From Clostridia bacterium (lineage in GTDB: Bacteria; Bacillota; Clostridia; UMGS1883), in contig JAZLFH010000053.1 of the NCBI GenBank assembly GCA_045615705.1, positions 1 through 54,981 of the forward strand: 54,981 nt of DNA, in the 5' to 3' direction. The notes below the pieces were generated by a model. It ran no database searches, was not told the DNA's origin, and was given only the letters and a program-made list of their open reading frames with translations. The stretch's first letter is position 1. The number at the start of each line of letters is the position of its first letter. The translations under genes were made by a program, and so were the position numbers. Of this stretch, positions 2,210-51,322 are shown one piece after another.

Positions 2210-2270
2210 GGCGACTCGAAATCAGTTGAACCGCAAGGTTCCGTGGGTTCGAATCCCATCCTCTCCGCCA
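2210..2270 (+). pseudogene. truncated tRNA-Ser(CGA), 3' half only (att-site remnant)
   Basis: Anticodon loop CTCGAAA, long variable arm, T-arm GGGTTCGAATCCC and acceptor 3' strand plus CCA (..CCTCTCCGCCA) are present. No complementary GGAGAGG 5' acceptor or D-arm lies upstream. Confidence 0.7.
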
Positions 2271-2427
2271 AAAATCCTCGTTCGCAAGAACGGGGATTTT
2301 TACTTATTCCTTATTCCCTCTTCACTCTTACCTAAATGTCTATAAATGAGGATTTTTGGAAAGTAAAAAGTAATAGTGAATATGGAAGAAGCGAGGTGCA
2401 AAATCGCTATGGCGATTTTGTTTTGAA
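2271..2427 (+). repeat. tRNA-linked repeat, copy 1 (hairpin terminator + imperfect inverted-repeat body + second hairpin)
   Basis: Starts right after CCA with AAAATCCTCGTTC-GCAA-GAACGGGGATTTTT and ends with CAAAATCGC..GCGATTTTGTTTTG. It is about 80% similar by eye to the copies at 11646, 12611/23729 and 26548. Confidence 0.8.
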
Positions 2428-11409: not shown

Positions 11410-11645
11410 TTTTTAATTACTCCCTCATTAACTATTTTTAAAAAGCACTCTGATATTATATGTTATTATAACATACCTTCTTTTGATATGTCAAATTTTA
11501 ACACGCTCAACAGTATGTAAAAAACAGAATTTTAACTTAAACGGTTCAAATCACTTATTCGTTAGAAAAAATGAACTTTTGCAATTAATAATTGTTTGAA
11601 TCTTATAAGTAACGAGTTATCCGTAAAATTATCCTTTTATTTAAA

Positions 11646-11770
11646 CCTTACTTTTCATATTCACTATTACTTTTTACTTTCCAAAAATCCTCGTTTCTAG
11701 ACATTTTAAGTAAAAGTGAAGAAGAAATCGTGCATAAGTAAAATCCCCGTTCTTGCGAACGAGGATTTTT
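11646..11770 (-). repeat. tRNA-linked repeat, tRNA-less copy (serves as terminator of the 208-aa membrane gene)
   Basis: The 88-nt block 11683-11770 differs from 23729-23817 by one substitution and one 1-nt indel. It contains the hairpin GATTTT..AAAATCCTCGTTCGCAAGAACGGGGATTTT on the minus strand. Confidence 0.8.
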
Positions 11771-12610: not shown

Positions 12611-12718
12611 GCAGTAACCGAAACATTTATCAATTACTGCTTTTTTATATTTCAAAACAAAATCGCTTGCGATTTTTACCTTACTTCTTCCCTCTTACAT
12701 ATTACTTTTTACTTTCCA
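12611..12718 (-). repeat. distal half of a tRNA-linked repeat split by the island
   Basis: Matches the reverse complement of 26645-26752 (third hairpin GCAGTAA..TTACTGC, hairpin AAAATCGC..GCGATTTT, ATTACTTTTTACTTTCC). The similarity stops at CA (12717-12718). Confidence 0.75.
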
Positions 12719-12857
12719 TGCTTATGTCAAGTAAAGACCAAAAAATAATTATTATTTTTTTAACTATGTTATAGCTTTGGTTATCATCTTGCATCACCTC
12801 CTTTAGATTAATTATTAATTTGTATTATTATTTTCTAATAATTCGTAATATTTTTCT

Positions 12858-14465
12858 TTAACATCGGATATTTTTAAGTCTTTCAAACACGTTTTGATAC
12901 CTAAAAACAATCTTTATTTTTTTATTACTTGATATATAAATCTTATCAACCAGCATAACAAGTAATTTGTGTGTCAATTCTTTCACATCGCTATCAACCG
13001 ATATAACGTTAATCCCATCAGCGTATTCTTCCGCTTCTTTACTTGTTGATTCTCTTTCTTCTAACATTCTTTCGACAGAAATTTGTTCTTTCTGTATTTC
13101 TTCTTCATAGATAGCTCTGAAATCAGCAAAATCATCTCGTGATATTATTCCATTGCAATAACTTTGATGTGTAAGAAGCAAGTCTTTCTTTTTGTTTTTT
13201 ATTGCTTCTTGCTTATCGAAAATGATTTTATCCAAATTAAAATCAGAATCTATTTTAACACTATTATTAATAATTCTATGTGATAAATTATCAGGACCTG
13301 CAACAAGTTTGATTTGCGTATTGATTGCATTTAAAATGATTTTATACAAATCTGATTCTTTAATATTATGACTTGAACATGTTCCGTACTTTTTCTGCGT
13401 ACCACATCGATAATATATGTATTTTTTATCCTTATACTTTGATATTCTTCTAACCATAGTATTTTTACACTCTTCACAGAACAACATACCGGAAAAAACA
13501 TTTGATTCGGACTGTCTGTTTGTATTTCTCGTATCACGACTTAATATTTCATTTGCAATTTGAAAAAGTTCATTAGATATAATTGGCGGATGAGAATTGC
13601 ACACCCTCACCCATTGCTTTTTATCTTTATTGACGATAGTCTTAACTTTATAACTATCTGTTGTTCTCTTTCCTTGCACCAATGTTCCGGTATATATTTC
13701 ATTTTTAATAATTCGCATAACCGTTTGTGCAGACCACTTTGCTTTATCGCCTTTTGAATTAAAACCGTTATGATTTATTCCGATGCTTCTTTTATAGTCT
13801 GATGGAGATAATATTCCGAGATAATTCAGTTTATCCGCAATTCCATATGAACTAATTCCCTCTGTAACCCAAAGGAAAATTGATTTTATATTATCAGCAA
13901 CATTTTCGTCTATCATTATTTTATTTTTGTTTTCAGGAGATTTCATATATCCATAAACAACAAATGCACCAGTATACTCCCCGTTTTTTCGTTTGGTTTC
14001 TAAGTTGCTCCTTATCTTTGCTGATATATCACTTAAATACATATCATTAACAATGCTCTTAAATGTAAAAACCAATTCATCTTTAACCGATGAACAATAT
14101 AAGGAATCATAATTATCGTTTACGGCAATTAATCTCACTCCCCATTTAGGGAACAGATTCATTACATAAATTCCCGAGCCTATATAGTCCCTTGAAAATC
14201 TTGATAAATCTTTTACTATTATGCAATTAACCTTTTTAGACTTTATTGCTTGAATAAGCTTGATAAACCCCGGTCTTTCAAAGTTGCTACCGCTATACCC
14301 ATCATCAATCATCTCGTCTACAATTTCAATATCATCACGCACCGAAACATATTCATCTATCAATGATCTTTGATTAGAAAAACTATTGCTTTCAATTTTA
14401 TCATTACAATCTTTTGACAGTCTCAAATATCGGGCAGCATGATACTTTACTTTTCTGCAACACAT
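12858..14465 (-). CDS. large serine recombinase (535 aa)
   Basis: N-terminal resolvase motif AARYLRLSKD...SNQRSLI, a recombinase domain, a Cys-rich zinc-ribbon (CEECK...CGTQKKYGTCSSH) and a C-terminal coiled coil. Confidence 0.85.
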   Translation of the reverse strand: MCCRKVKYHAARYLRLSKDCNDKIESNSFSNQRSLIDEYVSVRDDIEIVDEMIDDGYSGSNFERPGFIKLIQAIKSKKVNCIIVKDLSRFSRDYIGSGIYVMNLFPKWGVRLIAVNDNYDSLYCSSVKDELVFTFKSIVNDMYLSDISAKIRSNLETKRKNGEYTGAFVVYGYMKSPENKNKIMIDENVADNIKSIFLWVTEGISSYGIADKLNYLGILSPSDYKRSIGINHNGFNSKGDKAKWSAQTVMRIIKNEIYTGTLVQGKRTTDSYKVKTIVNKDKKQWVRVCNSHPPIISNELFQIANEILSRDTRNTNRQSESNVFSGMLFCEECKNTMVRRISKYKDKKYIYYRCGTQKKYGTCSSHNIKESDLYKIILNAINTQIKLVAGPDNLSHRIINNSVKIDSDFNLDKIIFDKQEAIKNKKKDLLLTHQSYCNGIISRDDFADFRAIYEEEIQKEQISVERMLEERESTSKEAEEYADGINVISVDSDVKELTHKLLVMLVDKIYISSNKKIKIVFRYQNVFERLKNIRC

Positions 14466-14592
14466 ATTCCCTTACCTCCTTTGATTTTGATTTCAACCTC
14501 TAAAATTTCAAACCCATTATCATATGGTTAATATTCAATTATATGGTCAATTGCAACATATAAATATATAACAAAACTTTTAAGCCTATTGT

Positions 14593-17358
14593 TCAAGTAA
14601 TAATAACAATATTACTTCCACCGCTCTTTTCTTTTTTTACTACTATTTGTTTTTCAATTCTATCTTTAAGTTCGCTTACATGAGAAATTATTCCGACAAG
14701 TCTGTTACCATCAGCAAGAGAAGAAAGTGCCTTAATCGCCTGTGCCAAAGATTCATCATCCAAAGAACCAAAGCCTTCATCAACAAACATTGTATCAAGT
14801 TTTATTCCGCCTGCAGATGACTGGATTTCATCAGACAAGCCAAGTGCAAGAGAAAGAGATGCTTTAAATGATTCACCACCGGACAAGGTTTTTACGCTTC
14901 TTTCGGTACCGTTATAGTGATCGATTACATCAAGTTCAAGACCGCTTTGACTGCGATTGTTTTCGGCTTCTTTTCTGCGTTTTAATTCATACTGACCGCC
15001 TGACATAACCATAAATCTTGTGTTAGCACGATTTATAATTCGGTCAAAGTAGGTCATCTGAATATATGTTTCCAGCATAACCTTTTCCTTTCCGCTCAAG
15101 TTACCGTTTGCAGTATTGGAAAGTGCTTTCATCCATGTCCATTTTTCTTCAACGCTTTTGATTTCATCAAGTTTTTGCAGAATACTATCAAGAGAAAATT
15201 TATTGGAAGTTTTGCGACTATGTACTTCTTTTGACTTTGCATCAAGCTCTGCCTGTTTTTCCTCAAACAGTTGTTTATTTTCTTTCTCGTTTTCTAAATC
15301 AACATCAGTACCGCTACCTATATGCTTCAGAATTTCTTCTTTAGCAGATTTTAGTGATGCAAGCTTTTCTTTATTTTCATTTACAGCCTTCAAAGCTTCA
15401 TCATAAGATTTTTGAATTTCTTCGGATTCTTTGTTTAAGGCTGTTATTTGATTTTCAGCCTCTGTTTTTGTTTCAAAAGTCAGTTTTTTTGTAAGCTCTG
15501 CAATGCGTTTTCCTAAAGCTTCATTTTTAATAGCTTTTGCTTTGACCTCATCCTTGAGTTCGCTTAGTTCCTTCTTTTCTTTTTCAAGAGCAGCGGACTT
15601 CTCAGGTATAAGGTCATCAAGTTCTTCTTTACGTTCGATTTTAGCCTGAGCTTTGTTCAGCTTCTTCTCGATATCGTCCATCAAAGTATCTATCTCCGAT
15701 ACTTTTACCACAATGACGGATTTAGCGTCATCCAATGATGCATCGCCTAAAAGCGATGATATTTCTTTTTTTACATTTTCTTCTTTTTCATCTGATGCGC
15801 CTTTTAATTTGCCTGCTTCAACTCTCGCATTATTTGCAACAGTATTTGCTTCGTTAAGCTTAACCTGCAAATTGTCAAGTTCTTCTTTTGTAGGAACATC
15901 CGCAGGTTTTGTTGCTAATTTAGGATGCGAGGTTGAGCCGCATACGGGGCAGGGTTTGTTCATTTCTAATGTTTCTGCCAGGATTCCTGCCTGTGCCTCA
16001 AGGTAAATTCTTGTTTTTTCTTTTAGCTCAGCATCCAGCAATTCTGCGTTTTTCTGCTTTTGCGTATAGTCTCCTGTCACTTTCTCATATTTACTGCGTT
16101 GTTCCTTTGCATCATCAATATCGTTATTAAGCTTTTCTAATTTTTCTTTTTCTTCCTGCTGGTTTTTCTTTTCAGCTTCAATCTTCAGCTTTTCTTCACC
16201 GATTTTTTCAAGAGCTTTGTTTTCCTCCGTAAGTGCGGTTATTTCCTCAGAAAGAACTTTTATTTCATCCTCTGCTTTTTCTATATTGTTGCTGCTTCCA
16301 TCGATAAAAATCTTATTCCTGTTAAACAAATTCCATTTTTCGGAAAGTTCATCATAATCAGGCAAAAGAGCCTTTGTTTCTGCCGCTTTTTCCGTGAATT
16401 TCTTAATTTCAAGTAATTTTTCTTTCGCAGTTTCGAGTTTTTTACTTAATCCGGTTTCCTTTTCAGATTCTGTTTTAAAATCGGATTCGTTTTTCTCAAG
16501 GTCAGTTTTGGCTCTGACGATGTCTTCTGCCTTAGTTATACGAGCCTTTATATCGTCCAATTCCTTTTGCAGCTTTTCCTTTTCTTCTAAAATTGTTTTT
16601 TCGGATTTTTCATCGTCCGCTATCAGTTGTTCTAAAAGCTCTACAATTTCTTCTGTAGTCAGTTCACCATTTTTGGCATTAAAAACTTCGGTAAAGCAAG
16701 CATTATCCTCATCACACACAATGCCGTTTATGTATTGTTCAATACTGCTTTTAATTGCATCATATTCGCGGCTGAGATTTCCCGATTCCGATTTCAATTT
16801 TTCCTGCAGAACATAATAGCTTTGTGTCTTAAAAAGTTTTTGGAATATTTTCTTTCGCTCATCAGTAGAAGCTAACAGCAGTTTAAGAAAATCACCCTGA
16901 GCTATCATAGCAATTTGCGTGAATTGGTTTCTGTCAATACCTATTATTTCAACAACAGCATTATTAACTTCTTTTAGTTTTGTAACTACTCTTCCGTTTG
17001 GAAAGTGCAGTTCAGCATTGGCTTTTTCCGATGTATAGCCTTCGCCTCTTGATTTTGGACGCTCATACTCAGGATTCCTTTTAATATAATATTCTTTATC
17101 ATTACAAGTAAAACATAATTCCACTTCTGTGGGAGTTTCAGGCACTGCATACTTTGATCGGAACATGGACGATTCTCTTGTTTGTCCGCTTGCTTCTCCA
17201 AAAAGAGCAAAGGTAATTGCATCAAATATGGTAGTTTTTCCCGCACCTGTATCACCGGTTATCAGGTAAAGACCATTTTGTCCAAGCCTATCAAGTTCGA
17301 GAGTTATTTTTCCGGCATAGGGTCCAAAAGCAGACATTATAAGTTTATTTGGTCTCAT
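14593..17358 (-). CDS. sbcC: SbcC/Rad50-like SMC-type ATPase with zinc hook (921 aa)
   Basis: Walker A GDTGAGKTT, CPVCG hook within a long Lys/Glu coiled coil, signature LSGGESFKASLSLALGLS, Walker B DTMFVDEGFGSLD, H-loop ISHV. The ATG overlaps the sbcD-like stop as ATGA. Confidence 0.9.
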   Translation of the reverse strand: MRPNKLIMSAFGPYAGKITLELDRLGQNGLYLITGDTGAGKTTIFDAITFALFGEASGQTRESSMFRSKYAVPETPTEVELCFTCNDKEYYIKRNPEYERPKSRGEGYTSEKANAELHFPNGRVVTKLKEVNNAVVEIIGIDRNQFTQIAMIAQGDFLKLLLASTDERKKIFQKLFKTQSYYVLQEKLKSESGNLSREYDAIKSSIEQYINGIVCDEDNACFTEVFNAKNGELTTEEIVELLEQLIADDEKSEKTILEEKEKLQKELDDIKARITKAEDIVRAKTDLEKNESDFKTESEKETGLSKKLETAKEKLLEIKKFTEKAAETKALLPDYDELSEKWNLFNRNKIFIDGSSNNIEKAEDEIKVLSEEITALTEENKALEKIGEEKLKIEAEKKNQQEEKEKLEKLNNDIDDAKEQRSKYEKVTGDYTQKQKNAELLDAELKEKTRIYLEAQAGILAETLEMNKPCPVCGSTSHPKLATKPADVPTKEELDNLQVKLNEANTVANNARVEAGKLKGASDEKEENVKKEISSLLGDASLDDAKSVIVVKVSEIDTLMDDIEKKLNKAQAKIERKEELDDLIPEKSAALEKEKKELSELKDEVKAKAIKNEALGKRIAELTKKLTFETKTEAENQITALNKESEEIQKSYDEALKAVNENKEKLASLKSAKEEILKHIGSGTDVDLENEKENKQLFEEKQAELDAKSKEVHSRKTSNKFSLDSILQKLDEIKSVEEKWTWMKALSNTANGNLSGKEKVMLETYIQMTYFDRIINRANTRFMVMSGGQYELKRRKEAENNRSQSGLELDVIDHYNGTERSVKTLSGGESFKASLSLALGLSDEIQSSAGGIKLDTMFVDEGFGSLDDESLAQAIKALSSLADGNRLVGIISHVSELKDRIEKQIVVKKEKSGGSNIVIIT

Positions 17359-18494
17359 ATTTCTCCCTCCCATATTTCTTCAATAAGCTTTTTCATAAAA
17401 TCACTTTGCTTATAATTCATAGGTTGATTATTTTGCTTTTCATAAAATTCTGAAAAATGTTCATACGGAGATTTTTTCTCCACATTATCTGCACCGTCAA
17501 TAGAATTCATATCCCTTGTACGGAGATTATCATAATCAAGTTTCATAAGGTTATGATAAACAGTTCGAAGCTTACCTATTGCATCAGGAATATCATCTTC
17601 ATCCGTAAGTGTAATATGAACATAATCCTCCTGCAACGTAGTTTTTTTATAATAATCCCGAAGCATAATTTCATCATATTTACCTTTTATTTCTACCATA
17701 TCACGGAGTGGCTTTAACGGAACCGTTTTTACTGAAAGTTTGCCCTTTTCATAAAGTTCAACTCCCGTAACACTCTTATTATCCTTCGATTCCGAAAAAG
17801 AATATTTAAGCGGTGTTCCGGAATATCTCACTTTTTCGGATTTGCAATTCTGCGGACGGTGAATATGACCGAGTGCGGTATAGTCAAACACATCAAAAAC
17901 AGACACATCAACATTATCTGCTCCCCCAACGGATATTTCCTCCGACTCTGTTCGTTCCGCTCCCGTTACAAATTGATGAGTTATCATGATATTTCGTTCG
18001 TTTGAATCTATATTAAAATTTTCAACAGCAACACGCACAGCATCCGAATATGAATTAATTTCAACATCTTCGTTAAATTTGCGAATATGAACCGGCTTTA
18101 CAAATGGAAGCATCCAAATGTTTATTTTGCCGTATTCATCTTCTAATGTCACAGGACATATATTTCCATCATAAACCGGCGACATATATATTTTGCTTGC
18201 TTCCATAAGTTTTCCTCCGAAAGCAATACGTTCAGGTGAGTCATGATTACCGCTGATTACAAAAACATATACATTCCTTTTTGATAACTTTACTAAAAAA
18301 TTATCAAAAAGTGCTACCGCTTCTGCTGACGGAACTGATTTGTCATACACATCACCTGCTATAATTACCCCATCCGGCTTTTGTTCATCTATGATATTTA
18401 TTATTTGATTTAGTATGTATTCCTGATCCTCAAGCATTGAGTATTCATTTACTCTTTTTCCTATATGAAGATCTGATAAATGTATAAATTTCAT
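17355..18494 (-). CDS. sbcD: SbcD/Mre11-like metallophosphoesterase nuclease subunit (379 aa)
   Basis: Motifs HLSDLHIG, GDVYD, GNHD and GHIH. ATGA overlaps with both neighbouring genes. Confidence 0.9.
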   Translation of the reverse strand: MKFIHLSDLHIGKRVNEYSMLEDQEYILNQIINIIDEQKPDGVIIAGDVYDKSVPSAEAVALFDNFLVKLSKRNVYVFVISGNHDSPERIAFGGKLMEASKIYMSPVYDGNICPVTLEDEYGKINIWMLPFVKPVHIRKFNEDVEINSYSDAVRVAVENFNIDSNERNIMITHQFVTGAERTESEEISVGGADNVDVSVFDVFDYTALGHIHRPQNCKSEKVRYSGTPLKYSFSESKDNKSVTGVELYEKGKLSVKTVPLKPLRDMVEIKGKYDEIMLRDYYKKTTLQEDYVHITLTDEDDIPDAIGKLRTVYHNLMKLDYDNLRTRDMNSIDGADNVEKKSPYEHFSEFYEKQNNQPMNYKQSDFMKKLIEEIWEGEI

Positions 18495-19981
18495 TTTATT
18501 TTTCCCTCAGCGTTTGATTTCTCTTTTCTGAAAAAATCCATTTCTTGAGATTTACTCATTATCGCAAGAGGTCCCATCGGCTTGAGTCCGGCATAGTATT
18601 CCAATGCTCTGTCACATGCGGAAAGGACTTCCGATATTTTACCTTGTTCTGCAAATATGGTAACCATATATTTAAAAGCATCTATCTTTTTCCAAAAACA
18701 ATATTTTCTTTCAATTCCATCGATAGAGTTTTGAATTATTGATAGCATAAAATTATCGTTCGATTTAGTATATTCTTTCAGTTGTTCTTTTAAATATTTA
18801 TATTCATGTTCTTTTTTACTATCATTTTGTTGCAAAACATCAGTAATTAGTCCCAAACATACTTCACTGTATTCAAGGCATTTTTCAGAATATGAATGAT
18901 TTTCTTCTCTATGTGTAAAATAATGTTTACACAAGTCACAACATTTATTATATTTTTCTTCAACTTCAACAGAATTCTCAAATGCCATCATCAACTCTTG
19001 TTCCATTTTAGTAAATGCTTTTGCAGTAATTACAGGTCTGGGTATAGGCGTTCTTTTTGCTGGGACTTTAGCTTCCGGCATATTCCCTGTTTTCCTCAAT
19101 TCTGCAAGCTTTGCTTTTACCATATCATGTGTTTTTTGCAATAAAGCAGAAATTGTTTTTTTGTTTTCTTCACTGATTTCGGTATTTATTTCAGTACATG
19201 CAACAGAAGAATTTGCAAATGGTGTAAACGCATATGTTATACCGCTTTTTTTATTTTGACTGATACATTCGAAAAGAGGTACATATCCATTCCTATATTT
19301 ATTTGAAATAATATTTTCTAAACATTCTTGAAACATTTCAGGATATTTATTTATATAAAGTTTGTTAGTAAACCCGAACTTATTCGCCAATAGAATAAAA
19401 TCATATGCATCAAAAGGTATACCCAATTTATACTTTGCAAAAATGTAGCATTTTTCAATATACTGTATTTCATCTTTTAAATTTATCGATTCTAATATTC
19501 TATTGAAAAGTTTTTTGTCATTCATCACGGCAGACATATACAACAACATCTTCGCAGAATAATTACGAAAAGAACTTTTTTCCTTATATGTATCACGCAA
19601 TTTTAAAATTACATCAACAACTTGATTGGTCTTATTAAAAAACAGACGTTCAAGACCACAGTAAAACAAATAAACATATTCAATGCTGAATTCACCCGAG
19701 TAGGGACTTCGCAAAAATTGCGTATAAGTATATTTTTGTTCAGCATTCAACATATCAAAGGTAAACGAATAACCAGTCAACGGAATTACAGAATCGTATT
19801 CGTCAACCGACTTAATCTCAAATTCGTCTGGCATAGCACTTGGTTCATCTTTGGATAAAACAAATTCGTTTCCATGCCACTTTAAATTTTGTTTGTCAAT
19901 TATATCATTTTTACATATTAGCAAATTTTTCAAATCAGAATGAATCTGTTTTTTTAACTCAACTAATTTTATTGCTTTCAT
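18491..19981 (-). CDS. hypothetical 496-aa protein with N-terminal TerB_N-like region and Cys-containing helical C-terminus
   Basis: YSFTFDMLNAEQKYTYTQFLRSPYSGEFSIEYVYLFYCGLERLFF resembles the TerB_N signature (..Y..L...Q...Y..WL......I.YVFLYFYGLERR). The ATG at 19981 has a GGGAGGAG RBS lying inside the abiEii 3' end. Confidence 0.6.
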   Translation of the reverse strand: MKAIKLVELKKQIHSDLKNLLICKNDIIDKQNLKWHGNEFVLSKDEPSAMPDEFEIKSVDEYDSVIPLTGYSFTFDMLNAEQKYTYTQFLRSPYSGEFSIEYVYLFYCGLERLFFNKTNQVVDVILKLRDTYKEKSSFRNYSAKMLLYMSAVMNDKKLFNRILESINLKDEIQYIEKCYIFAKYKLGIPFDAYDFILLANKFGFTNKLYINKYPEMFQECLENIISNKYRNGYVPLFECISQNKKSGITYAFTPFANSSVACTEINTEISEENKKTISALLQKTHDMVKAKLAELRKTGNMPEAKVPAKRTPIPRPVITAKAFTKMEQELMMAFENSVEVEEKYNKCCDLCKHYFTHREENHSYSEKCLEYSEVCLGLITDVLQQNDSKKEHEYKYLKEQLKEYTKSNDNFMLSIIQNSIDGIERKYCFWKKIDAFKYMVTIFAEQGKISEVLSACDRALEYYAGLKPMGPLAIMSKSQEMDFFRKEKSNAEGKIK

Positions 19982-19982
19982 A

Positions 19983-20882
19983 TCAATGCTCCTCCCATTT
20001 GCCTCTATTTTTATCCCAATATTCAAAAAACTCGCACTCGTTTATGATTGCATTCCAAACAGGTTTTAAAAACTCACAAATTGACTCTATAACAGTTTTG
20101 AACTCAAGTTCCGGCATTTTTATCGTGCGAATATACAAATTCCATTTTGAAATCATCTGTGAATCATTTGCAAATTCTTTTATTTTATCAAGACTATCTC
20201 TGCTATATGTAGTACCTCTGTTTTGCAGCGTTTCAAATATTGCTTCCTGCAATTTGCGGCCATCAAAATCAAACATATTGGAAAGATAATATATATCATA
20301 AAAATCTTTCATTCTGCTTGTCATTTCAAGAAGCTGAAGTATGGCATCAAATTTTTCAGCTATTGTACTTTCAAGAGAATATGTGCTTATTTCAGGCTTT
20401 GTAAATTCATCAAGCTGAACCGGTATAATCCTCTTTTCAGATTTCGGCACAATAATATCTCCCACACCTAAATCTACATTAAAAGGCGTGCGAGTGTTTT
20501 TTATTTTCCCCATTATTTGAAATGAAACGCCTTTATATTTTCTTTGTGGCGATATAGTTTCAAAGCCCTTTGCCGTAAGTACTATAAAATCATTTCCTGT
20601 ATCTACACTTAGGATTTCTGTTATGATTTTTTCTATCTCTTCAACACTATTTGGAAGCTGACGCATAAGAAAATCTATATCCACTGTTGCTCTGCTCTCG
20701 AAGTTGGTGAGAGTATAAATAAACAAACCGCCTTTGAGAACTAGATTATCCGCATATTTTGACATTGAAAGCTTGCGCAGGAATTCTTCCTGACAAAACA
20801 ACTGCAAATGCATTTGAAGTGGCATACCCGTTTTCTTTGCCTTATTTTTGAGTTTTGCAAGTACCGATGCACCTATATCCAT
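19983..20882 (-). CDS. abiEii: AbiEii/AbiGii-family nucleotidyltransferase toxin
   Basis: LKNKAKKTGMPLQMHLQLFCQEEFLRKLSMSKYADNLVLKGGLF...RATVDIDFL is the family N-terminal pattern. The start is ATG 20882 (sharing one nt with the abiEi stop) or GTG 20891. Confidence 0.8.
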   Translation of the reverse strand: MDIGASVLAKLKNKAKKTGMPLQMHLQLFCQEEFLRKLSMSKYADNLVLKGGLFIYTLTNFESRATVDIDFLMRQLPNSVEEIEKIITEILSVDTGNDFIVLTAKGFETISPQRKYKGVSFQIMGKIKNTRTPFNVDLGVGDIIVPKSEKRIIPVQLDEFTKPEISTYSLESTIAEKFDAILQLLEMTSRMKDFYDIYYLSNMFDFDGRKLQEAIFETLQNRGTTYSRDSLDKIKEFANDSQMISKWNLYIRTIKMPELEFKTVIESICEFLKPVWNAIINECEFFEYWDKNRGKWEEH

Positions 20883-21547
20883 CACAACCACACTCCTATT
20901 CTGTCCCGTACTTTTTTATGAATATTTCTCTTTTTTGCATATTCCAAAAGATTAGTTATATTTTTACCGCTATCATTTATATATCCTATAATTGCCTTGT
21001 TATAAATTTCTCTGTCCATTTTATTTTCATGCTTAATACATTCGCAAATAAGTCTATCCTTATCAAATATTCTCATAATACAATCTTCATATTTTGCTTC
21101 GGTAATACCATATTCAAGATGAGTTTTTTCTATATAGTACGGTTTTACATAAGGATAATCTATATTAAATCTTGCCTTAGATACGTTTCTATCTATCGCA
21201 ATATCCCATGTAAGCGGAGTTCTATCGCTATATCCATAATAGAACAAAGCAGAAGTCATACAAAGAACTCCATCCGGATATAGACAACTGATGAGTTTTG
21301 CTTCGCTGTCACTTTCCGAATACCTTATAACTCTGTAATAACCCTGTTTTATACGTTCAATATATCCTTCCTTTATAAGTTCTCCTATTTCCTTTGAATA
21401 AATGCCTATACTGTTAAGCTCTGCAGTACGAATTAAGCATTTTATCCCATTATTAGTATCTAAATTTACTTTTGTTTGTCTCAAAGATGAATAGAAAGAA
21501 TCTATTATTTTATTATAGTAAGTAATTGTCTTTTTCACTTTTTTCAC
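20882..21547 (-). CDS. abiEi: AbiEi-family antitoxin/transcriptional regulator
   Basis: wHTH-like N-terminus (IRTAELNSIGIYSKEIGELIKEGYIERIKQGYY) followed by CMTSALFYYGYSDRTP, typical of AbiEi. It is paired with AbiEii downstream. Confidence 0.75.
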   Translation of the reverse strand: MKKVKKTITYYNKIIDSFYSSLRQTKVNLDTNNGIKCLIRTAELNSIGIYSKEIGELIKEGYIERIKQGYYRVIRYSESDSEAKLISCLYPDGVLCMTSALFYYGYSDRTPLTWDIAIDRNVSKARFNIDYPYVKPYYIEKTHLEYGITEAKYEDCIMRIFDKDRLICECIKHENKMDREIYNKAIIGYINDSGKNITNLLEYAKKRNIHKKVRDRIGVWL

Positions 21548-21582
21548 CTCATATAAATTCGCATTGTGGCAACTTTATATAT

Positions 21583-21611
21583 ATTATAATCTAAAAAGCA
21601 AAAAAAGTCAA
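21583..21611 (-). promoter_or_regulatory. near-consensus sigma-A promoter TTGACT-17-TATAAT for the abiE-sbcDC operon
   Basis: On the minus strand the -35 is at 21611-21606 and the -10 at 21588-21583, with a 17-nt spacer. It lies about 35 nt upstream of the abiEi start. Confidence 0.7.
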
Positions 21612-21637
21612 GTGAATCTAAAGAAATTATTATGCTA

Positions 21638-23182
21638 CTATTGCCAATTTATCTTAACATTATTTTTGTCAAATACGGTTATTTTACTAATCATAAGATC
21701 AACAAGTTCTTTTTTTAAAACTTTATCTCGGGTATGTTTTTTCATTGCAATCAATTTGTCTCCAATCATGTTTAATTTGATGGTTTTATTTTTCAAATTC
21801 TCAACACAATTATTGTATTGTGTAGCCTCCTCATCATACTTTGCTTTACCTGTTTTAAAAACTTCTTCATCTACGAGTTGATGAATATAATTGTCGTATA
21901 GTTCAAACTTCTTACGTTTGATTTCACCAATACTTTGGTAAAGTTCTCGCATTTGTTTTTCTATATTTTTAATTTCTTTTTTTGCATCTGCAGGACTGAC
22001 TGCTTCTTTTTTTAATTCAAGCTTAATTTCTTCTTTTATAAGTTTGAGAATCATTTTATTAAATGACTTTGATGATATATATTTTGTGTTACAAGCTTCT
22101 TTGTTTAGCATTCGTGTGTAACACACATATGATGCTGTATCGGGATTACTCCCACATTTTTGTATTTTTGCTCCACACACACCGCAATATATTTTTCCAA
22201 GAAATACATTATTTACACTCTTCCTTTTCTTTTTGGGTTTTGATGAAGAATTTAATAATTTCTGAACCTCATCAAAAATTTCTTTATCAACTATTTTTTC
22301 ATGAGTATTCTCATGTATTATCCATTTTGTACTATCTGTGTTCTTAATCCTTATATCACCTGTCTTATAGTAGGTAGACTCATTTCTTCCTTGAGTATAA
22401 TTTCCGATATATGTCGGATTAGTAAGGATGTCTTGTATTGTGCCTCTGTTCCATATTTTAGGTTCTGACTCACATTTCGAATAGTTATATGGCGTTATTA
22501 TGTTATGGTTTGATAAATATTCTGCAACCTTTTTAATGGATTTATATCCTAAATACAAATCGAATATTTGCTTAACAACAGGAGCTGTTTCAGGATTAAT
22601 TACAAGTTTATAATCATTATCCAGAGAATAACCGTACGGTGCTTTTCTGTAAACATTAATTCCCTTTTTTCTGAGTAATTGAACTGATTGTCCGATTTTT
22701 AACGACATATCTTTTGAATACATCATATTAATCAAATTTTTAAATGGCACAACTACGCTTGCTTCATTTATTCGTTTTAAATTGTCATAATTATCATTGA
22801 TAGAAATAAATCTTATACCGCTACTCTGGAAGAAAATATTGATTAATTGCTCTGTTTCAACAAAGTTCCTTCCAAGTCTTGAATAATCCTTCACAACAAT
22901 ACAATTAATTTTATCCTCATAAATATCCCTCATCATTTCCTTGAATGCAGGCCTATTATAATTTGTTCCTGAATATCCATTGTCGGAATATACCTTATAC
23001 AAAACCATATCATCGCAAGACATCACATAGTCTTTATCTAATTCAATTTGATTTTGCAATGACCGATAATTCTTGCTTAATTCCTTATCTTCCATTGAAA
23101 GCCTTGCATATATTCCAACATTATATATTTTTGTTTTATCTTCAATTGTAATATTTTGCTGTTTTCTACTTTTCCTTGCCAT
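21638..23182 (-). CDS. large serine recombinase (514 aa)
   Basis: VGIYARLSMED...LQNQ catalytic motif, a recombinase domain, a zinc-ribbon CGVCGAK...YVCYTR...CNTK and a coiled-coil tail. Confidence 0.85.
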   Translation of the reverse strand: MARKSRKQQNITIEDKTKIYNVGIYARLSMEDKELSKNYRSLQNQIELDKDYVMSCDDMVLYKVYSDNGYSGTNYNRPAFKEMMRDIYEDKINCIVVKDYSRLGRNFVETEQLINIFFQSSGIRFISINDNYDNLKRINEASVVVPFKNLINMMYSKDMSLKIGQSVQLLRKKGINVYRKAPYGYSLDNDYKLVINPETAPVVKQIFDLYLGYKSIKKVAEYLSNHNIITPYNYSKCESEPKIWNRGTIQDILTNPTYIGNYTQGRNESTYYKTGDIRIKNTDSTKWIIHENTHEKIVDKEIFDEVQKLLNSSSKPKKKRKSVNNVFLGKIYCGVCGAKIQKCGSNPDTASYVCYTRMLNKEACNTKYISSKSFNKMILKLIKEEIKLELKKEAVSPADAKKEIKNIEKQMRELYQSIGEIKRKKFELYDNYIHQLVDEEVFKTGKAKYDEEATQYNNCVENLKNKTIKLNMIGDKLIAMKKHTRDKVLKKELVDLMISKITVFDKNNVKINWQ

Positions 23183-23381
23183 ACATCATATCTCCCCTAA
23201 AAAATACTCTAATGTACATATACGAAAATAATTTTAAAAGTGCAAAACAAACATAGTAATAATTTTAATTTTAAAATCAAAAGCCACCACTTTCAATGTG
23301 ATGACTTTTGAACATTCCATTATTTATGTACTTGACAGCATTTTTGTAAGTTATGGAGATAATAGTTTAATTATGCTTAAA

Positions 23382-23618
23382 TCAATATTCCGGTACTTCA
23401 AGCCTACCGGTTTCTATTTCTGTTTGATAAATATCAAACATTTTCTCAATACTATAGTGCCAAAATTTTGTTTTTTCATTTTCTAAATATTTATAAAATT
23501 CTGTTCTGTATAAATTACAAATAGCATCATCTTCCGATAAATGATAGGTTTGAATTATTTTTTCTATTAGAGCTGTTGTTATCAAAGATAACAAAGCAAC
23601 GAACTTTTCTTTTTCCAT
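23382..23618 (-). CDS. small hypothetical protein (78 aa, DUF3791-like)
   Basis: Compact helical ORF just inside the island's right end. The family call is from memory only. Confidence 0.4.
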   Translation of the reverse strand: MEKEKFVALLSLITTALIEKIIQTYHLSEDDAICNLYRTEFYKYLENEKTKFWHYSIEKMFDIYQTEIETGRLEVPEY

Positions 23619-23728
23619 ACTGTAAAACTCCTAAGTATCATAAGTCTGTTTCTGTACTCATTTTACTACAAAATCCGAAACAAGTCAACAAATCATAAAA
23701 GCTTATCATTTTACCAAACTACAACATT

Positions 23729-23817
23729 CAAAAATCCTCGTTTCTGGACATTTTAAGTAAAAGTGAAGAAGAAATCGTGCATAAGTAAAAATCCCCGTTC
23801 TTGCGAACGAGGATTTT
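23729..23817 (-). repeat. tRNA-proximal half of the split tRNA-linked repeat (tRNA-Leu terminator)
   Basis: Directly abuts the tRNA-Leu 3' end and contains the GAACGGGGATTTT hairpin. Homology to the other copies stops at CA (23729-23730). Confidence 0.75.
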
Positions 23818-23904
23818 TGGTGCCCGAGGCCGGACTCGAACCGGCACGATATTGCTACCGAGGGATTTTAAGTCCCTTGCGTCTGCCAATTCCGCCACTC
23901 GGGC
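23818..23904 (-). tRNA. tRNA-Leu(TAA)
   Basis: The reverse complement reads GCCCGAGTGGCGGAATTGGCAGACGCAAGGGACTTAAAATCCCT...GGTTCGAGTCCGGCCTCGGGCACCA. It has anticodon loop CTTAAAA, a long variable arm and an encoded CCA. Confidence 0.9.
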
Positions 23905-26471: not shown

Positions 26472-26547
26472 GGCCTTATAGTCTAGCGGTCCAGGACGTC
26501 GCCCTCTCACGGCGAAGACCGGGGTTCGAGTCCCCGTAGGGTCACCA
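26472..26547 (+). tRNA. tRNA-Glu(CTC)
   Basis: GGCCTTATAGTCTAGCGGTCCAGGACGTCGCCCTCTCACGGCG...GGTTCGAGTCCCCGTAGGGTCACCA. Anticodon loop CTCTCAC. Confidence 0.85.
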
Positions 26548-26752
26548 AAAATCCTCGTTCTAAGGAACGGGGATTTTTACTTATTCACTATTCCCTCTTC
26601 ACTCTTACTTAAAGTTCTACCGCACGAGGATTTTTTGGAAGTAAAAAGTAATAGTGAATATGGAAGAAGTAAGGTAAAAAATCGCAAGCGATTTTGTTTT
26701 GAAAATAAAATTAAGCAGTAACATATACATTGTATCGGTTACTGCTTTTTTA
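26548..26752 (+). repeat. tRNA-linked repeat, longest intact copy (three hairpins, ~205 bp)
   Basis: Hairpin 1 is AATCCTCGTTC-TAAG-GAACGGGGATT plus a T-run. It is followed by an imperfect inverted-repeat body, hairpin 2 AAAATCGC-AA-GCGATTTT, and hairpin 3 GCAGTAAC..GGTTACTGC plus a T-run. Confidence 0.8.
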
Positions 26753-50658: not shown

Positions 50659-51001
50659 AGCGAGTAAGCCAAGCGGTCGCGGGGGCAATTTATTTGTCAA
50701 TGAGGAAAGTCCGAGCTCCATAGGGCAAGGGTGCCGGGTAACTCCCGGTGGAGGCGACTCTAAGGAAAGTGCAACAGAAATAAACCGCCGATTCTTTCGG
50801 TAAGGGTGGAAAGGTGGAGTAAGAGCCCACCGACACTGCGGTAACGCGGTGTGCCATGTAAACCCCATCCGGAGCAACACCTTATAGGAGAGGTTAAGTC
50901 TGCCCGGCGTCTCTCGGGAAGGTGGCTGGAGCCGTGTAGAGATACACGGCGTAGATAGATGACCGTTTAATACAGAACTCGGCTTACAGACTTACTCGCT
51001 T
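50659..51001 (+). ncRNA. rnpB: RNase P RNA
   Basis: Universal GAGGAAAGTCCGAGC (P4 5' strand) and ACAGAACTCGGCTTACAG (P4 3' strand). The P1 pairing is GCGAGTAAG...CTTACTCGC. Confidence 0.9.
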
Positions 51002-51006
51002 AATTT

Positions 51007-51097: not shown

Positions 51098-51184
51098 GGA
51101 GAGGTGTCCGAGTGGTTTAAGGAGCTGGTCTTGAAAACCAGTGACTCGAAAGAGCCAAGAGTTCGAATCTCTTCCTCTCCGCCA
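51098..51184 (+). tRNA. tRNA-Ser(TGA)
   Basis: GGAGAGGTGTCCGAGTGG..., anticodon loop CTTGAAA, long variable arm, ...GAGTTCGAATCTCTTCCTCTCCGCCA. Confidence 0.9.
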
Positions 51185-51230: not shown

Positions 51231-51322
51231 GGAGAAGTACTCAAGCAGGTCGAAGAGGCGCCCCTGCTAAGGGCGTAGGCCGGGTAACCGGCGCGAGGGT
51301 TCGAATCCCTCCTTCTCCGCCA
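51231..51322 (+). tRNA. tRNA-Ser(GCT)
   Basis: GGAGAAGTACTCAAGCAGG..., anticodon loop CTGCTAA, long variable arm, ...GGTTCGAATCCCTCCTTCTCCGCCA. Confidence 0.9.

Follow-up and report, generated by a model that had tools for sequence, protein, structure and literature searches.

AbiE is a type IV toxin-antitoxin and abortive-infection system, and the described AbiE loci are bicistronic. SbcCD is the bacterial Mre11-Rad50. In Shango, the SngA protein (TerB_N/TerB/TerB_C) works with the SngB helicase and the SngC ATPase. PrrC is embedded in the EcoprrI hsd operon and is held silent by EcoprrI. RloC, which carries a Rad50-like hook, reacts to DNA breaks (PMC3458546, PMC3874168), and a phage inhibitor of SbcCD, TelN, exists (PMC12624138). 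An origin from SbcCD has been proposed for Lamassu (LmuA-LmuC-LmuB), which has one more gene upstream, at the position of the variable gene described below (PMC12663957).

The window analyzed here is the whole 54,981-nucleotide stretch of contig JAZLFH010000053.1 from a Clostridia bacterium. It contains an operon of five minus-strand genes in the order abiEi, abiEii, a gene for a protein here called X, sbcD, and sbcC (Table 1). The minus strand of 14400-21750 was read directly and its ORFs were listed. The genes lie behind one near-consensus promoter, TTGACT (21611-21606) and TATAAT (21588-21583) with a spacer of 17 nt, which scores 11/12 and is in the top three of 83 promoter-like sites between 11.4 and 24 kb. 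Intergenic DNA is almost lacking: the abiEi TGA and the abiEii ATG have A20882 in common (TGATG), the abiEii TGA (19985-19983) is followed after 1 nt by the X ATG at 19981, and ATGA overlaps join X to sbcD (18494-18491) and sbcD to sbcC (17358-17355). The ribosome-binding site of X, GGGAGGAG, is found 8 nt upstream of its ATG, within abiEii. No convincing terminator was found inside the operon, as terminator-like sites (7) do not exceed those in shuffles (5.1 +/- 2.4), and the sole one inside the operon on the minus strand is a weak, AT-rich stem in sbcD (17485-17463). In the ORF listing several ORFs reach further upstream, to GTG or TTG codons, but the ATG starts are the ones with ribosome-binding sites; abiEi starts at GTG 21547 or GTG 21538. 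A preliminary description of this DNA had claimed the single promoter, the near-zero intergenic DNA, the absence of an internal hairpin plus T-run terminator and these ATG starts, all of which are borne out. The catalytic motifs, located by regular expression in AbiEii, SbcD, and SbcC, are all intact, and all five genes are under purifying selection.

Table 1. Features of the operon and of the island carrying it (positions in the window).
Feature	Position	Strand	Basis or remark
Distal half of split tRNA trailer	12660..12718	-	Other island junction
Island E1, 11.0 kb	about 12719..23728	.	Integrative element, in conserved trailer downstream of tRNA-Leu
SR_down, large serine recombinase, 535 aa	12858..14465	-	Resolvase, Recombinase, Zn_ribbon_recom domains
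sbcC, Rad50-type ATPase with zinc hook, 921 aa	14593..17358	-	AAA_23 + SbcC_Walker_B; motifs
sbcD, Mre11-type nuclease, 379 aa	17355..18494	-	Metallophos + SbcD_C; motifs
X, 496 aa, TerB_N/SngA-related, hypervariable slot	18491..19981	-	TerB_N 5e-8; SngA 2e-8
abiEii, nucleotidyltransferase toxin, 299 aa	19983..20882	-	Pfam AbiEii 1e-44; PADLOC 9e-89
abiEi, antitoxin and probable autoregulator	20882..21547	-	Pfam AbiEi_4; PADLOC AbiEi 3e-66
Operon promoter TTGACT-17-TATAAT	21583..21611	-	Sequence read and promoter scoring
SR_up, large serine recombinase, 514 aa	21638..23182	-	Resolvase, Recombinase, Zn_ribbon_recom domains
78-aa ORF, island edge	23382..23618	-	ORF listing
Proximal half of split tRNA trailer, including terminator hairpin	23729..23817	-	One island junction
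tRNA-Leu (UAA)	23818..23904	-	ARAGORN + Rfam; trailer is insertion target

The operon is the cargo of an 11-kb serine-recombinase island, as had been proposed. The trailer is interrupted between 12718, the last position of its distal half (...ACTTTCCA), and 23729, the first of its proximal half (CAAAAATCCTCG...). Joined, the halves give the intact trailer found after tRNA-Glu and at 2270-2374, and the island could be mapped precisely because the split trailer can be rebuilt from these paralogous copies. The island has a G+C content of 29-37%, compared with 38-43% in the flanks, which are housekeeping genes. The two recombinases flanking the operon are dissimilar (27% identity only), and the 78-aa ORF gave no family match.

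The first two genes form a complete AbiE pair, antitoxin first and with overlapping stop and start codons, directly downstream of a conserved promoter. Strong PADLOC and Pfam matches and retained NTase motifs (KGG at 50 and DID at 68 in AbiEii) agree with the identities given earlier. The window pair differs from described AbiE in being followed by three more genes without intergenic DNA, which places the gene in the third position, below called the slot, and sbcDC under the abiE promoter.

SbcD and SbcC are full-length and in the usual gene order with the usual overlap. The Mre11- and Rad50-type motif sets claimed for them were all located, in agreement with the domain calls: DLH (8), GDVYD (47), GNHD (82), THQ (172), and GHIH (209) in SbcD, and GDTGAGKTT (35-43, Walker A Lys41), a CPVC hook (470-473), LSGGE (825), DTMFVDEGF (855), and ISH (891) in SbcC. 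SbcD matches TIGR00619 above the cut-off; the pair falls below the NCBIfam equivalog cut-offs, as expected of a divergent clostridial lineage. Both proteins are 85-89% identical to, and equal in length to, copies in L110, which stand alone between nadE/spoIIP/gpr and the thiamine (thi) operon. Judged by sequence, the island pair is an ordinary SbcCD, and since partnered and unpartnered SbcD and SbcC are equal in length and show this high identity, no docking adaptation is visible. The pair is nevertheless unusual in being located on an integrative island, in recurring beside mobile-element genes and in being preceded by AbiE and a variable gene.

X gives a TerB_N match of 33.3 bits (cut-off 25), confirming the earlier assignment, and over its full length it weakly matches the SngA model. 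It belongs to a family of patchy distribution that is related to TerB_N and SngA and comprises 808 clusters at 50% identity. The operon logic, in which a DNA enzyme and an ATPase come after a TerB_N protein, also resembles that of Shango. However, X matches only the TerB_N part of SngA and has no TerB or TerB_C domain, and its partners in the window are SbcD and SbcC, not a helicase; X is not a Shango member. The PADLOC and profile-HMM search called for in the preliminary description matched AbiEi, AbiEii, TerB_N, SbcD, and SbcC, with TerB_C absent from X. The AlphaFold2 model of X is of high confidence (pLDDT 94.5) but had no match in PDB or BFVD, and the predicted fold is novel; no recognizable enzyme domain was found among the domain calls. 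Although X is under purifying selection, it evolves at 3-5 times the rate of the flanking genes (dN/dS 0.17-0.25 vs 0.05-0.10 for SbcD and AbiEii).

The more distant relatives of X have the same length and architecture, and none of them has SbcCD within 6-10 kb on 44 contigs; for relatives with 27-39% identity, SbcCD was absent from 13 genome or metagenome and 29 IMG/VR contigs. They stand alone, in contexts that include a site following a prophage lysis cassette (L001), a position next to genes for a CI-like repressor and an integrase (L007), a phage genome where the gene lies between terL and portal, and a megaplasmid where its neighbors are RepA and restriction-modification genes. Fusion proteins elsewhere join the X domain to an Mrr nuclease (P0232) or a DUF4011 SF1 helicase (P0235), and these fusions together with the Shango partners indicate that TerB_N proteins may need a DNA enzyme partner.

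In related contigs the recombining module extends from the abiE promoter through the sbcC stop codon. Homology starts at the -35 in L018 and L106, with -35, -10 and 5'UTR conserved in both, and ends at the sbcC stop codon. In the relatives the module is flanked by genes for a tyrosine integrase, a relaxase and TnpV, and not by serine recombinases. As the module recurs with the same boundaries beside a different mobile-element backbone, the combination is not a one-off, and the constancy of its ends, sbcDC included, beside two unrelated backbones suggests selection on the combination. The claim that the unit is physically welded to AbiE is supported.

AbiE and SbcDC are about 82-92% identical at the protein level in these contigs. 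When it comes to the slot between them, it contains either X alleles that are 58-80% identical or a non-homologous RloC/PrrC-like ATPase. In L018 this is a 766-aa protein with a CPFC hook (PADLOC candidate PDC-S06, 4e-227), and the nucleotide identity to the window is 83% for the AbiE block and 82% for the SbcDC block, with X cleanly replaced between them. Compared with L106, AbiEii and SbcD of the window are 90 and 91% identical, while X is only 59% identical. X of L106 is closest to X of L003 (67%) and SbcD of L106 to that of the window, so the X and SbcD trees disagree. Relative to L003, the X, SbcD, and SbcC proteins of the window have each diverged to about 60-67%. X of the close clade (>=58% identity) always abuts sbcD with overlapping stop and start codons (5 alleles on 9 contigs, counting the window and a decayed copy in L113), and AbiE-X without SbcDC was never seen among these loci. 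X accompanies only about 5 alleles, compared with >120 SbcD clusters (about 80% identity or more), and of six close SbcD relatives sampled, three lack a partner gene.

In another clostridial clade a Type IV methyl-directed REase (5e-233), a Ppl-like protein, PDC-S06, and PDC-S41 are packed against sbcDC; these are all stand-alone defence genes. Three PDC-S06 subfamilies adjoin sbcDC in at least four arrangements. Across clades the sbcDC neighbors are overwhelmingly recognized defence genes, and tight packing is general at these loci, the Type IV REase included.

By its sequence the operon matches no named system beyond AbiE, and no match in PADLOC, NCBIfam or the literature names the abiE-X-sbcDC combination, which had been put forward as undescribed. 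It shares with Lamassu an extra gene upstream of SbcD- and SbcC-like genes in a modular, variable position, but here the nuclease domain of SbcD is complete and SbcC retains a long coiled coil, and X has no LmuA-type match in the PADLOC profile search and no recognizable effector domain. The L018 slot ATPase, with its CxxC hook within the operon of a DNA-targeting enzyme, resembles PrrC and RloC, but it is hosted by SbcCD rather than by a type I restriction enzyme, and the window slot contains X, which lacks an ACNase domain. As in the P2/P4 hotspots (PMC9122126), conserved genes flank a single position where the cargo is non-homologous or highly divergent, known defence candidates among it; the flanks are here themselves a defence system and a nuclease, however, and translational coupling links them to the cargo.

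The best explanation, to which we give about an even chance, is that the island carries a compact multi-layer anti-phage or anti-plasmid operon of mobile elements in which X is an exchangeable cassette and not a fixed third subunit of SbcCD. The cassette nature of X is supported by the clean slot swap, the shuffling of X against SbcD, the SbcCD-free distant relatives and the ordinary SbcDC. The single transcription unit P-abiEi-abiEii-X-sbcD-sbcC is a recombining module of three separable parts. By analogy with characterized AbiE, AbiEi would repress the abiE promoter, which the AbiE part supplies, and neutralize the AbiEii nucleotidyltransferase, and infection or loss of the element would release the toxin. 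X would be a defence cassette, probably a sensor or trigger, and the orthodox, catalytically intact SbcCD would be an ATP-dependent nuclease cutting hairpins and blocked DNA ends.

Some observations count against this explanation: close-clade X always abuts sbcD with overlapping codons, PDC-S06 subfamilies recur up- or downstream of sbcDC, the constant module ends suggest a selected combination, and the X-domain fusions may reflect the need for a DNA enzyme partner. All of these would fit a possible, though less probable, alternative where exchangeable slot proteins, either X alleles or PDC-S06, work through SbcCD or guard it. They might direct or license the nuclease on invader DNA, or fire once a phage inhibitor disables SbcCD, like PrrC with EcoprrI, and the element would bring sbcDC along to make the pair functional in any host. 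The Rad50-like hook and the break response of RloC (PMC3458546, PMC3874168), the inhibitor TelN (PMC12624138) and the proposed origin of Lamassu (PMC12663957) are in line with such a function. The incongruent trees, the SbcD and SbcC without visible docking adaptation, the distant X relatives without adjacent SbcCD and the general tightness of packing are not.

It is improbable that SbcDC is only a repair pair in a plastic, element-rich region, with AbiE as an addiction module stabilizing the element, X as an unrelated accessory gene, and no immune role for X or SbcCD. SbcDC is indeed orthodox, with near copies that stand bare or among housekeeping genes (L110, L019, L111). In L018, L003, L106, and L113, sbcC is followed by a 73-aa ORF, DUF2201, and LRR_5, as is the bare sbcDC of L111, so sbcDC may be native to these loci and the elements may have inserted upstream of it; in L113 decay has affected AbiEii-X but left sbcDC intact. 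The window sbcDC, however, is inside a precisely bounded island, the neighbors of sbcDC are mostly defence genes, X family members occur at prophage ends and in phage genomes, and X combines purifying selection with fast evolution. Very unlikely is a stable X-SbcD-SbcC holoenzyme, the accessory Rad50/Mre11-type immune enzyme of the preliminary description, as the coupling kept in all close-clade alleles and the joint divergence of the three proteins from L003 are outweighed by the replacement of X by PDC-S06 between conserved flanks, the allele shuffling, the few SbcD clusters with X, the partnerless SbcD relatives and the lack of an LmuA-type match. Of that description's overall interpretation the island cargo, the AbiE link and the unnamed combination stand, while X as a dedicated third subunit finds no support; the neighbors of X homologues, which it had proposed to count, speak against it through the SbcCD-free distant relatives, even though the close clade always abuts sbcD.

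The arrangement, seen again on other mobile elements, hints that some Clostridia use the "repair" nuclease SbcCD in immunity, although a defence role for X and for SbcCD is inferred.

The five-gene operon abiEi-abiEii-X-sbcD-sbcC is read as a probable mobile-element defence cassette array built on AbiE, and what sets it apart is that its constant partner is a complete SbcCD. All the features set out in the preliminary description, among them a near-consensus promoter followed by genes that abut or overlap, are present on the minus strand at 14400-21750 when the sequence is read directly and compared with the list of open reading frames. The 11-kb serine-recombinase island proposed there is also correct, and a split tRNA-Leu trailer gives its borders. 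The promoter is one of the three top-scoring promoter-like sites within the 12.6 kb scanned. X, a 496-aa TerB_N/SngA-related protein, has its ribosome-binding site, GGGAGGAG, within abiEii. Terminator-like sites do not exceed the expectation from shuffled sequence (7 vs 5.1 +/- 2.4). Within the operon the coding strand has just one, a weak AT-rich stem in sbcD, and an Rfam scan of the operon gave no match.

Coordinates of the features discussed, in the window unless another contig (L-number) is named
Feature	Position	Strand	Remark
Operon promoter TTGACT-17-TATAAT	21611-21583	-	score 11/12
AbiEi stop and AbiEii ATG	20882	-	nucleotide in common
AbiEii TGA	19985-19983	-	one nucleotide before X ATG
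X	19981-18491	-	ATG at 19981
X/sbcD overlap	18494-18491	-	ATGA
sbcD/sbcC overlap	17358-17355	-	ATGA
AbiE block shared with L018	21403-19995	-	83% identical DNA
SbcDC block shared with L018	18495-14599	-	82% identical DNA
Island E1	about 12719-23728		11.0 kb; borders 12718/12719 and 23728/23729
Serine recombinase SR_up	21638-23182		
Serine recombinase SR_down	12858-14465		
tRNA-Leu(UAA)	23818-23904		
Trailer, distal half (partial copy)	12660-12718		
Trailer copy	2270-2374	-	
Trailer copy	11640-11770	+	
Trailer copy	23729-23818	+	
Trailer copy	26547-26652	-	directly behind tRNA-Glu
tRNA-like 3' part	about 2210-2269	+	followed by a trailer copy
tRNA-Glu	26472-26547		
RNase P RNA (class A)	50661-51002	+	
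tRNA-Ser	51098-51184		
tRNA-Ser	51231-51322		
Decayed module	L113:7945-9004		
73-aa ORF and DUF2201 behind sbcC	L003:6541-7101		
73-aa ORF and DUF2201 behind sbcC	L018:16333-18990		
Four-gene arrangement	L046:4835-14716		human gut
Tandem serine recombinases and sbcD	L102:48-9053		IMG/VR
Genes upstream of sbcDC	L024:3443-7550		
Archaeal X homologue	L009:8910-9671		Methanocorpusculum MAG

The operon is flanked within E1 by the two large serine recombinases SR_up and SR_down, which share the Resolvase + Recombinase + Zn_ribbon_recom architecture of that class and are only 27% identical to each other. Read along the minus strand, the island opens with a 78-aa ORF and continues with SR_up, the operon and SR_down. 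Its G+C content is 29-37% against 38-43% outside, and it is surrounded by housekeeping genes (EF-G, FtsW/RodA, a penicillin-binding protein, RNase P RNA and tRNAs); the RNase P RNA and tRNA genes confirm the chromosomal context of the window. Downstream of tRNA-Leu(UAA) just the proximal half of the trailer is found, ending at 23729, and the distal half lies at the opposite border of the island. Joining 12660-12718 to 23729-23817 in silico yields an intact trailer, ...ACTTTCCA followed across the junction by AAAATCC..., which matches the paralogous copies; removal of E1 from the sequence thus restores its target, and the rejoined halves set the limits of the island. A CA dinucleotide stands at both junctions. 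No empty E1 site was found in another genome, and the flanks of the window show no synteny with L003, L018 or L019, three contigs with related sbcDC genes.

The trailer is about 130 nt long, contains the terminator hairpin AAAATCCCCGTTCTTGCGAACGAGGATTTTT and is dispersed behind tRNA genes, although one copy stands behind a gene for a 208-aa membrane protein, not a tRNA. This repeat mimics an att duplication around E1. A 90-nt direct repeat (11682-11770 / 23729-23818) was considered as such a duplication bounding a 12-kb island and was rejected, since it is part of the dispersed trailer. A further copy is preceded by sequence resembling the 3' part of a tRNA (...GGTTCGAATCCCATCCTCTCCGCCA), called by neither ARAGORN nor Rfam, which may be the tRNA remnant of an old integration.

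AbiE is the only system that PADLOC recognises in the operon. AbiEi has the N-terminal winged-helix domain PF13338 (AbiEi_4, 27.9 bits, cut-off 25) and matches the PADLOC AbiEi model over residues 37-221 (3e-66), while the nucleotidyltransferase AbiEii (PF08843) is matched at 1e-44 by Pfam and 9e-89 by PADLOC with its catalytic motifs intact (KGG at 50, DID at 68). Judged by gene content, the AbiE pair is complete, with both antitoxin and toxin of this known type IV abortive-infection system matched at the level of the genes, and it is also the apparent source of the operon promoter. SbcD carries the Metallophos and SbcD_C domains and reaches 169 bits with TIGR00619 (cut-off 77.65). SbcC, with 921 aa and a full coiled coil, has the ABC-ATPase head and CxxC hook and exceeds the Pfam cut-offs for AAA_23 and SbcC_Walker_B; with TIGR00618 it scores 245 bits, under the cut-off of 478.5. 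Regular expressions, used also for AbiEii, place the SbcC motifs GDTGAGKTT (Walker A, Lys41), CPVC at 470, LSGGE at 825, DTMFVDEGF at 855 and ISH at 891, and the SbcD motifs DLH at 8, GDVYD at 47, GNHD at 82, THQ at 172 and GHIH at 209. X has a Pfam TerB_N domain (33.3 bits, cut-off 25) and a weak match to the PADLOC model of Shango SngA (2.4e-8).

Membership of Shango or Lamassu was rejected, as the defining features of both are missing. SngA combines TerB_N, TerB and TerB_C, while X has TerB_N alone in Pfam; Shango also has SngB helicase and SngC ATPase partners, and no helicase is encoded in the operon or the island. X has no match to Lamassu LmuA at E ≤ 0.01 in PADLOC and no effector domain. 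LmuC lacks a nuclease domain and LmuB has a shortened coiled coil, whereas the SbcD found here retains every nuclease motif and the SbcC its full coiled coil; partial PADLOC matches of SbcC to LmuB are expected from Rad50 homology. The preliminary description, which proposed a candidate defence module, knew of no described system with this gene combination, and the profile (PADLOC) and literature searches bear this out: AbiE was recognised and no other named system, the combination AbiEi-AbiEii-X-SbcD-SbcC is unnamed in PADLOC, NCBIfam and the literature searched, and no description of SbcCD together with AbiE, TerB_N or defence islands was found in that literature.

Relatives of SbcD number more than 8000, with more than 120 clusters at about 80% identity or higher. 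A small sample of six close relatives (87-91% identical) was picked by the length of the contig and without regard to gene context, and most of the contigs compared are metagenome-derived. In three of these six loci an AbiE-slot module, the slot being the position between AbiE and SbcDC, lies upstream of sbcDC. L018 encodes in order an integrase, a relaxase, AbiEi, AbiEii, a 766-aa AAA_13 protein, SbcD, SbcC and a 162-aa PD-Lambda-3_A-like protein, and L106 encodes Mob_Pre, TnpV, AbiEi, AbiEii, an X allele, SbcD and SbcC. The third, L113, is a decayed module: AbiEi is intact and shares 96% identity with its L106 counterpart, only 47 codons of AbiEii are left and run into roughly the final 100 codons of an X allele, sbcDC is intact, and the C-terminal remnant of a relaxase lies upstream. 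The other three loci (L110, L019 and L111) have a bare sbcDC, L019 and L111 in different places that show no synteny with each other. SbcD and SbcC have equal lengths whether partnered or bare, and the "core" SbcDC of L110 is as near to the element-borne copies as those are to one another. SbcCD shows no adaptation to a partner that is visible in its sequence.

The homology between the window, L018 and L106 starts upstream at the -35 box and includes the 5'UTR, and downstream it stops at the sbcC stop; the stretch from promoter to sbcC stop is therefore one module, set between serine recombinases in the window and, at other loci, beside genes for integrase and relaxase. Between the two blocks shared with L018, X is cleanly swapped for the gene of the 766-aa protein, which matches the PADLOC candidate defence family PDC-S06 (4e-227), has a PrrC match in its C-terminal part and a CPFC hook, and is RloC-like. 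Identity between the window and L106 is 90% for AbiEii, 59% for X, 91% for SbcD and 83% for SbcC. The X of L106 is nearest to that of L003 (67%), though the SbcD proteins of these two loci share only about 64-67%. The dN/dS of X is 0.17-0.25 against 0.05-0.10 for SbcD and AbiEii, and in the comparison of the window with L106 X has a dN of 0.27, the other two one of about 0.055-0.059. All genes are under purifying selection, and X is faster-evolving. As in P2/P4-type hotspots, conserved flanks permit the swap of unrelated (L018) or highly divergent (L106) cargo. Behind sbcC, the 73-aa ORF and DUF2201 of L003 and L018 are about 90% identical, while their SbcDC proteins are just about 60% identical, which indicates block replacement of X-sbcDC in a shared backbone. 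A reading of sbcDC as a chromosomal anchor, upstream of which elements have landed, was rejected for the window, where sbcDC lies within E1. It may hold for L018, L113 and L003, whose genes 3' of sbcC also follow the bare sbcDC of L111.

Close relatives of X are scarce (8 clusters among 5.8 billion proteins). A profile search of 1.84 billion representatives gave 808 relatives at E ≤ 0.001, 301 of them at E ≤ 1e-30, and for most of the 808 the similarity is confined to the N-terminal 300 or so residues. An AlphaFold2 model of X from 71 sequences (pLDDT 94.5, pTM 0.86) predicts a small beta element together with a TerB_N-like core and a C-terminal half that are both helical. Conserved polar residues of X are H14, D16, E46, S48, Q82, E111, R112, R129, N257, H285 and K289. 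Neither this model nor a first one (pLDDT 74) has a match in the PDB at E ≤ 0.001, where only generic TPR-like helices were seen; at the same threshold the first model found nothing in BFVD, nor the X profile among PDB sequences.

Gene neighbourhood divides the X family into two groups. Relatives at least 58% identical to the window protein all lie immediately 5' of sbcD with overlapping stop and start (L008, 80%; L003 and L004, 60%; L106-L109, 59%; the remnant in L113), and AbiE is upstream in every contig long enough to show it. Relatives 27-39% identical have no SbcC or SbcD within 6-10 kb on 13 genome or metagenome and 29 IMG/VR contigs, and their contexts are those of accessory genes. Single cases are found directly behind a prophage holin and endolysin (L001), beside a CI-like repressor and integrase (L007), flanked by terL and portal in one complete phage genome, next to RepA and restriction-modification genes of a megaplasmid, and, in L123, at a distance of 4 kb from an AbiE pair. 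For at least 12 IMG/VR copies a contig end is no more than about 4.5 kb away. Fusions of the X-family domain also occur, with an Mrr_cat restriction nuclease in protein P0232 (641 aa) and with a DUF4011 SF1 helicase in P0235 (1911 aa). Elsewhere X thus looks like a self-contained accessory protein. An archaeal homologue in L009 adjoins a DUF6088 protein, a family which we take to be related to AbiEi antitoxins; if so, this is an X-AbiE-like neighbourhood far from Clostridia.

These comparisons fit a modular defence operon borne on a mobile element better than a three-subunit enzyme. AbiE is complete, the slot is hotspot-like, X is self-contained elsewhere and SbcCD lacks partner adaptation, and for these reasons X is read, with about even confidence, as an exchangeable cassette that would probably serve as a sensor or trigger and not as a fixed subunit of SbcCD. 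A functional tie between the slot proteins and SbcCD is a less probable, though real, prospect. The close X clade is never seen without sbcD, the module has moved as a unit that includes sbcDC, RloC-like ATPases recur next to sbcDC in several arrangements, and some proteins join an X-like domain to a nuclease or a helicase. A Rad50-like region lets RloC respond to DNA breaks (PMC3458546, PMC3874168), phages encode inhibitors of SbcCD (PMC12624138), and an origin from SbcCD, through gain of an upstream modular gene, has been put forward for Lamassu (PMC12663957). On the other side stand the distant X relatives, with no SbcCD within 6-10 kb.

A wider survey covered 80 metagenome loci whose SbcD is 57-70% identical, and in a second clostridial clade, mainly from the human gut, sbcDC is embedded among defence genes. 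Upstream in 33 loci lies, whole or as a fragment, a protein of some 1050 aa that combines PLD, helicase and DUF3427 domains and is identified by PADLOC as a Type IV methyl-directed restriction enzyme (5e-233); the intact gene stops 9-11 nt ahead of sbcD. Downstream of sbcC, 12 loci have a gene for a Ppl-like PHP-ATPase and 15 have one for a member of either of two PDC-S06 subfamilies; these genes start 7-25 nt past the stop or overlap the end of sbcC. Further neighbours are PDC-S41, another candidate defence family, a TOTE-type primase-helicase-PLD protein, YhcG nuclease, Fic and HipA-like proteins and, from reading its sequence, a putative BrxL-like protein. In L030, L033, L036, L046, L048, L055 and other human-gut loci the restriction enzyme, sbcD, sbcC and the PHP-ATPase follow in this order with gaps of at most 16 nt, and in others a PDC-S06 ATPase takes the last place. 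In L102 a tandem array of three to four large serine recombinases stands immediately 5' of a truncated Type IV restriction enzyme gene and sbcD, a second instance of such recombinases beside a defence-sbcDC block. L024 looks like a layered defence island, with a YhcG PD-(D/E)XK nuclease, a 974-aa TOTE-type protein and then a 159-aa Type IV restriction enzyme fragment upstream of sbcDC.

SbcCD is usually regarded as a housekeeping repair nuclease, and sbcDC could be plain repair machinery with hitch-hiking neighbours. The bare sbcDC of L110 is placed among housekeeping genes, between nadE/spoIIP/gpr and a thiamine operon, and remoter SbcD clades have ordinary neighbours, for instance, as read from their sequences, putative peptide deformylase-like and MscL-like ORFs. 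In the window the pair does not occupy a core position and lies inside E1, with no second sbcDC copy in the entire 54,981-base contig. Given also the defence genes around sbcDC in the second clade, this explanation appears improbable. Most improbable is the fixed X-SbcD-SbcC holoenzyme of the preliminary description, with X as third subunit, in view of the swapping in the slot, the self-contained X elsewhere and the unadapted SbcCD.

With the modular reading preferred, it is conceivable, at well below even odds, that in one gut and rumen lineage of Clostridia SbcCD has come to serve as the constant nuclease arm of a mobile immune module whose slot takes exchangeable sensor or guard proteins, either X alleles or RloC-like ATPases. 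If this is true, the module would represent a still extant stage on the way from the SbcCD repair complex to Lamassu, and X would define a new class of sensors coupled to SbcCD, its fold having no counterpart in the PDB. Whatever the answer, the uncharacterised X family, with about 800 clusters at 50% identity, phage- and mobile-element-associated and with a confident predicted model that has no PDB match, is a concrete candidate for defence screening. Mobile elements here carry a complete SbcCD whose genes share an operon with an abortive-infection system and with a swappable gene that evolves fast. If SbcCD acts in immunity, this would be a bacterial parallel to antiviral Rad50 complexes, would support the proposed origin of Lamassu from SbcCD, and would give a reason why phages encode SbcCD inhibitors.
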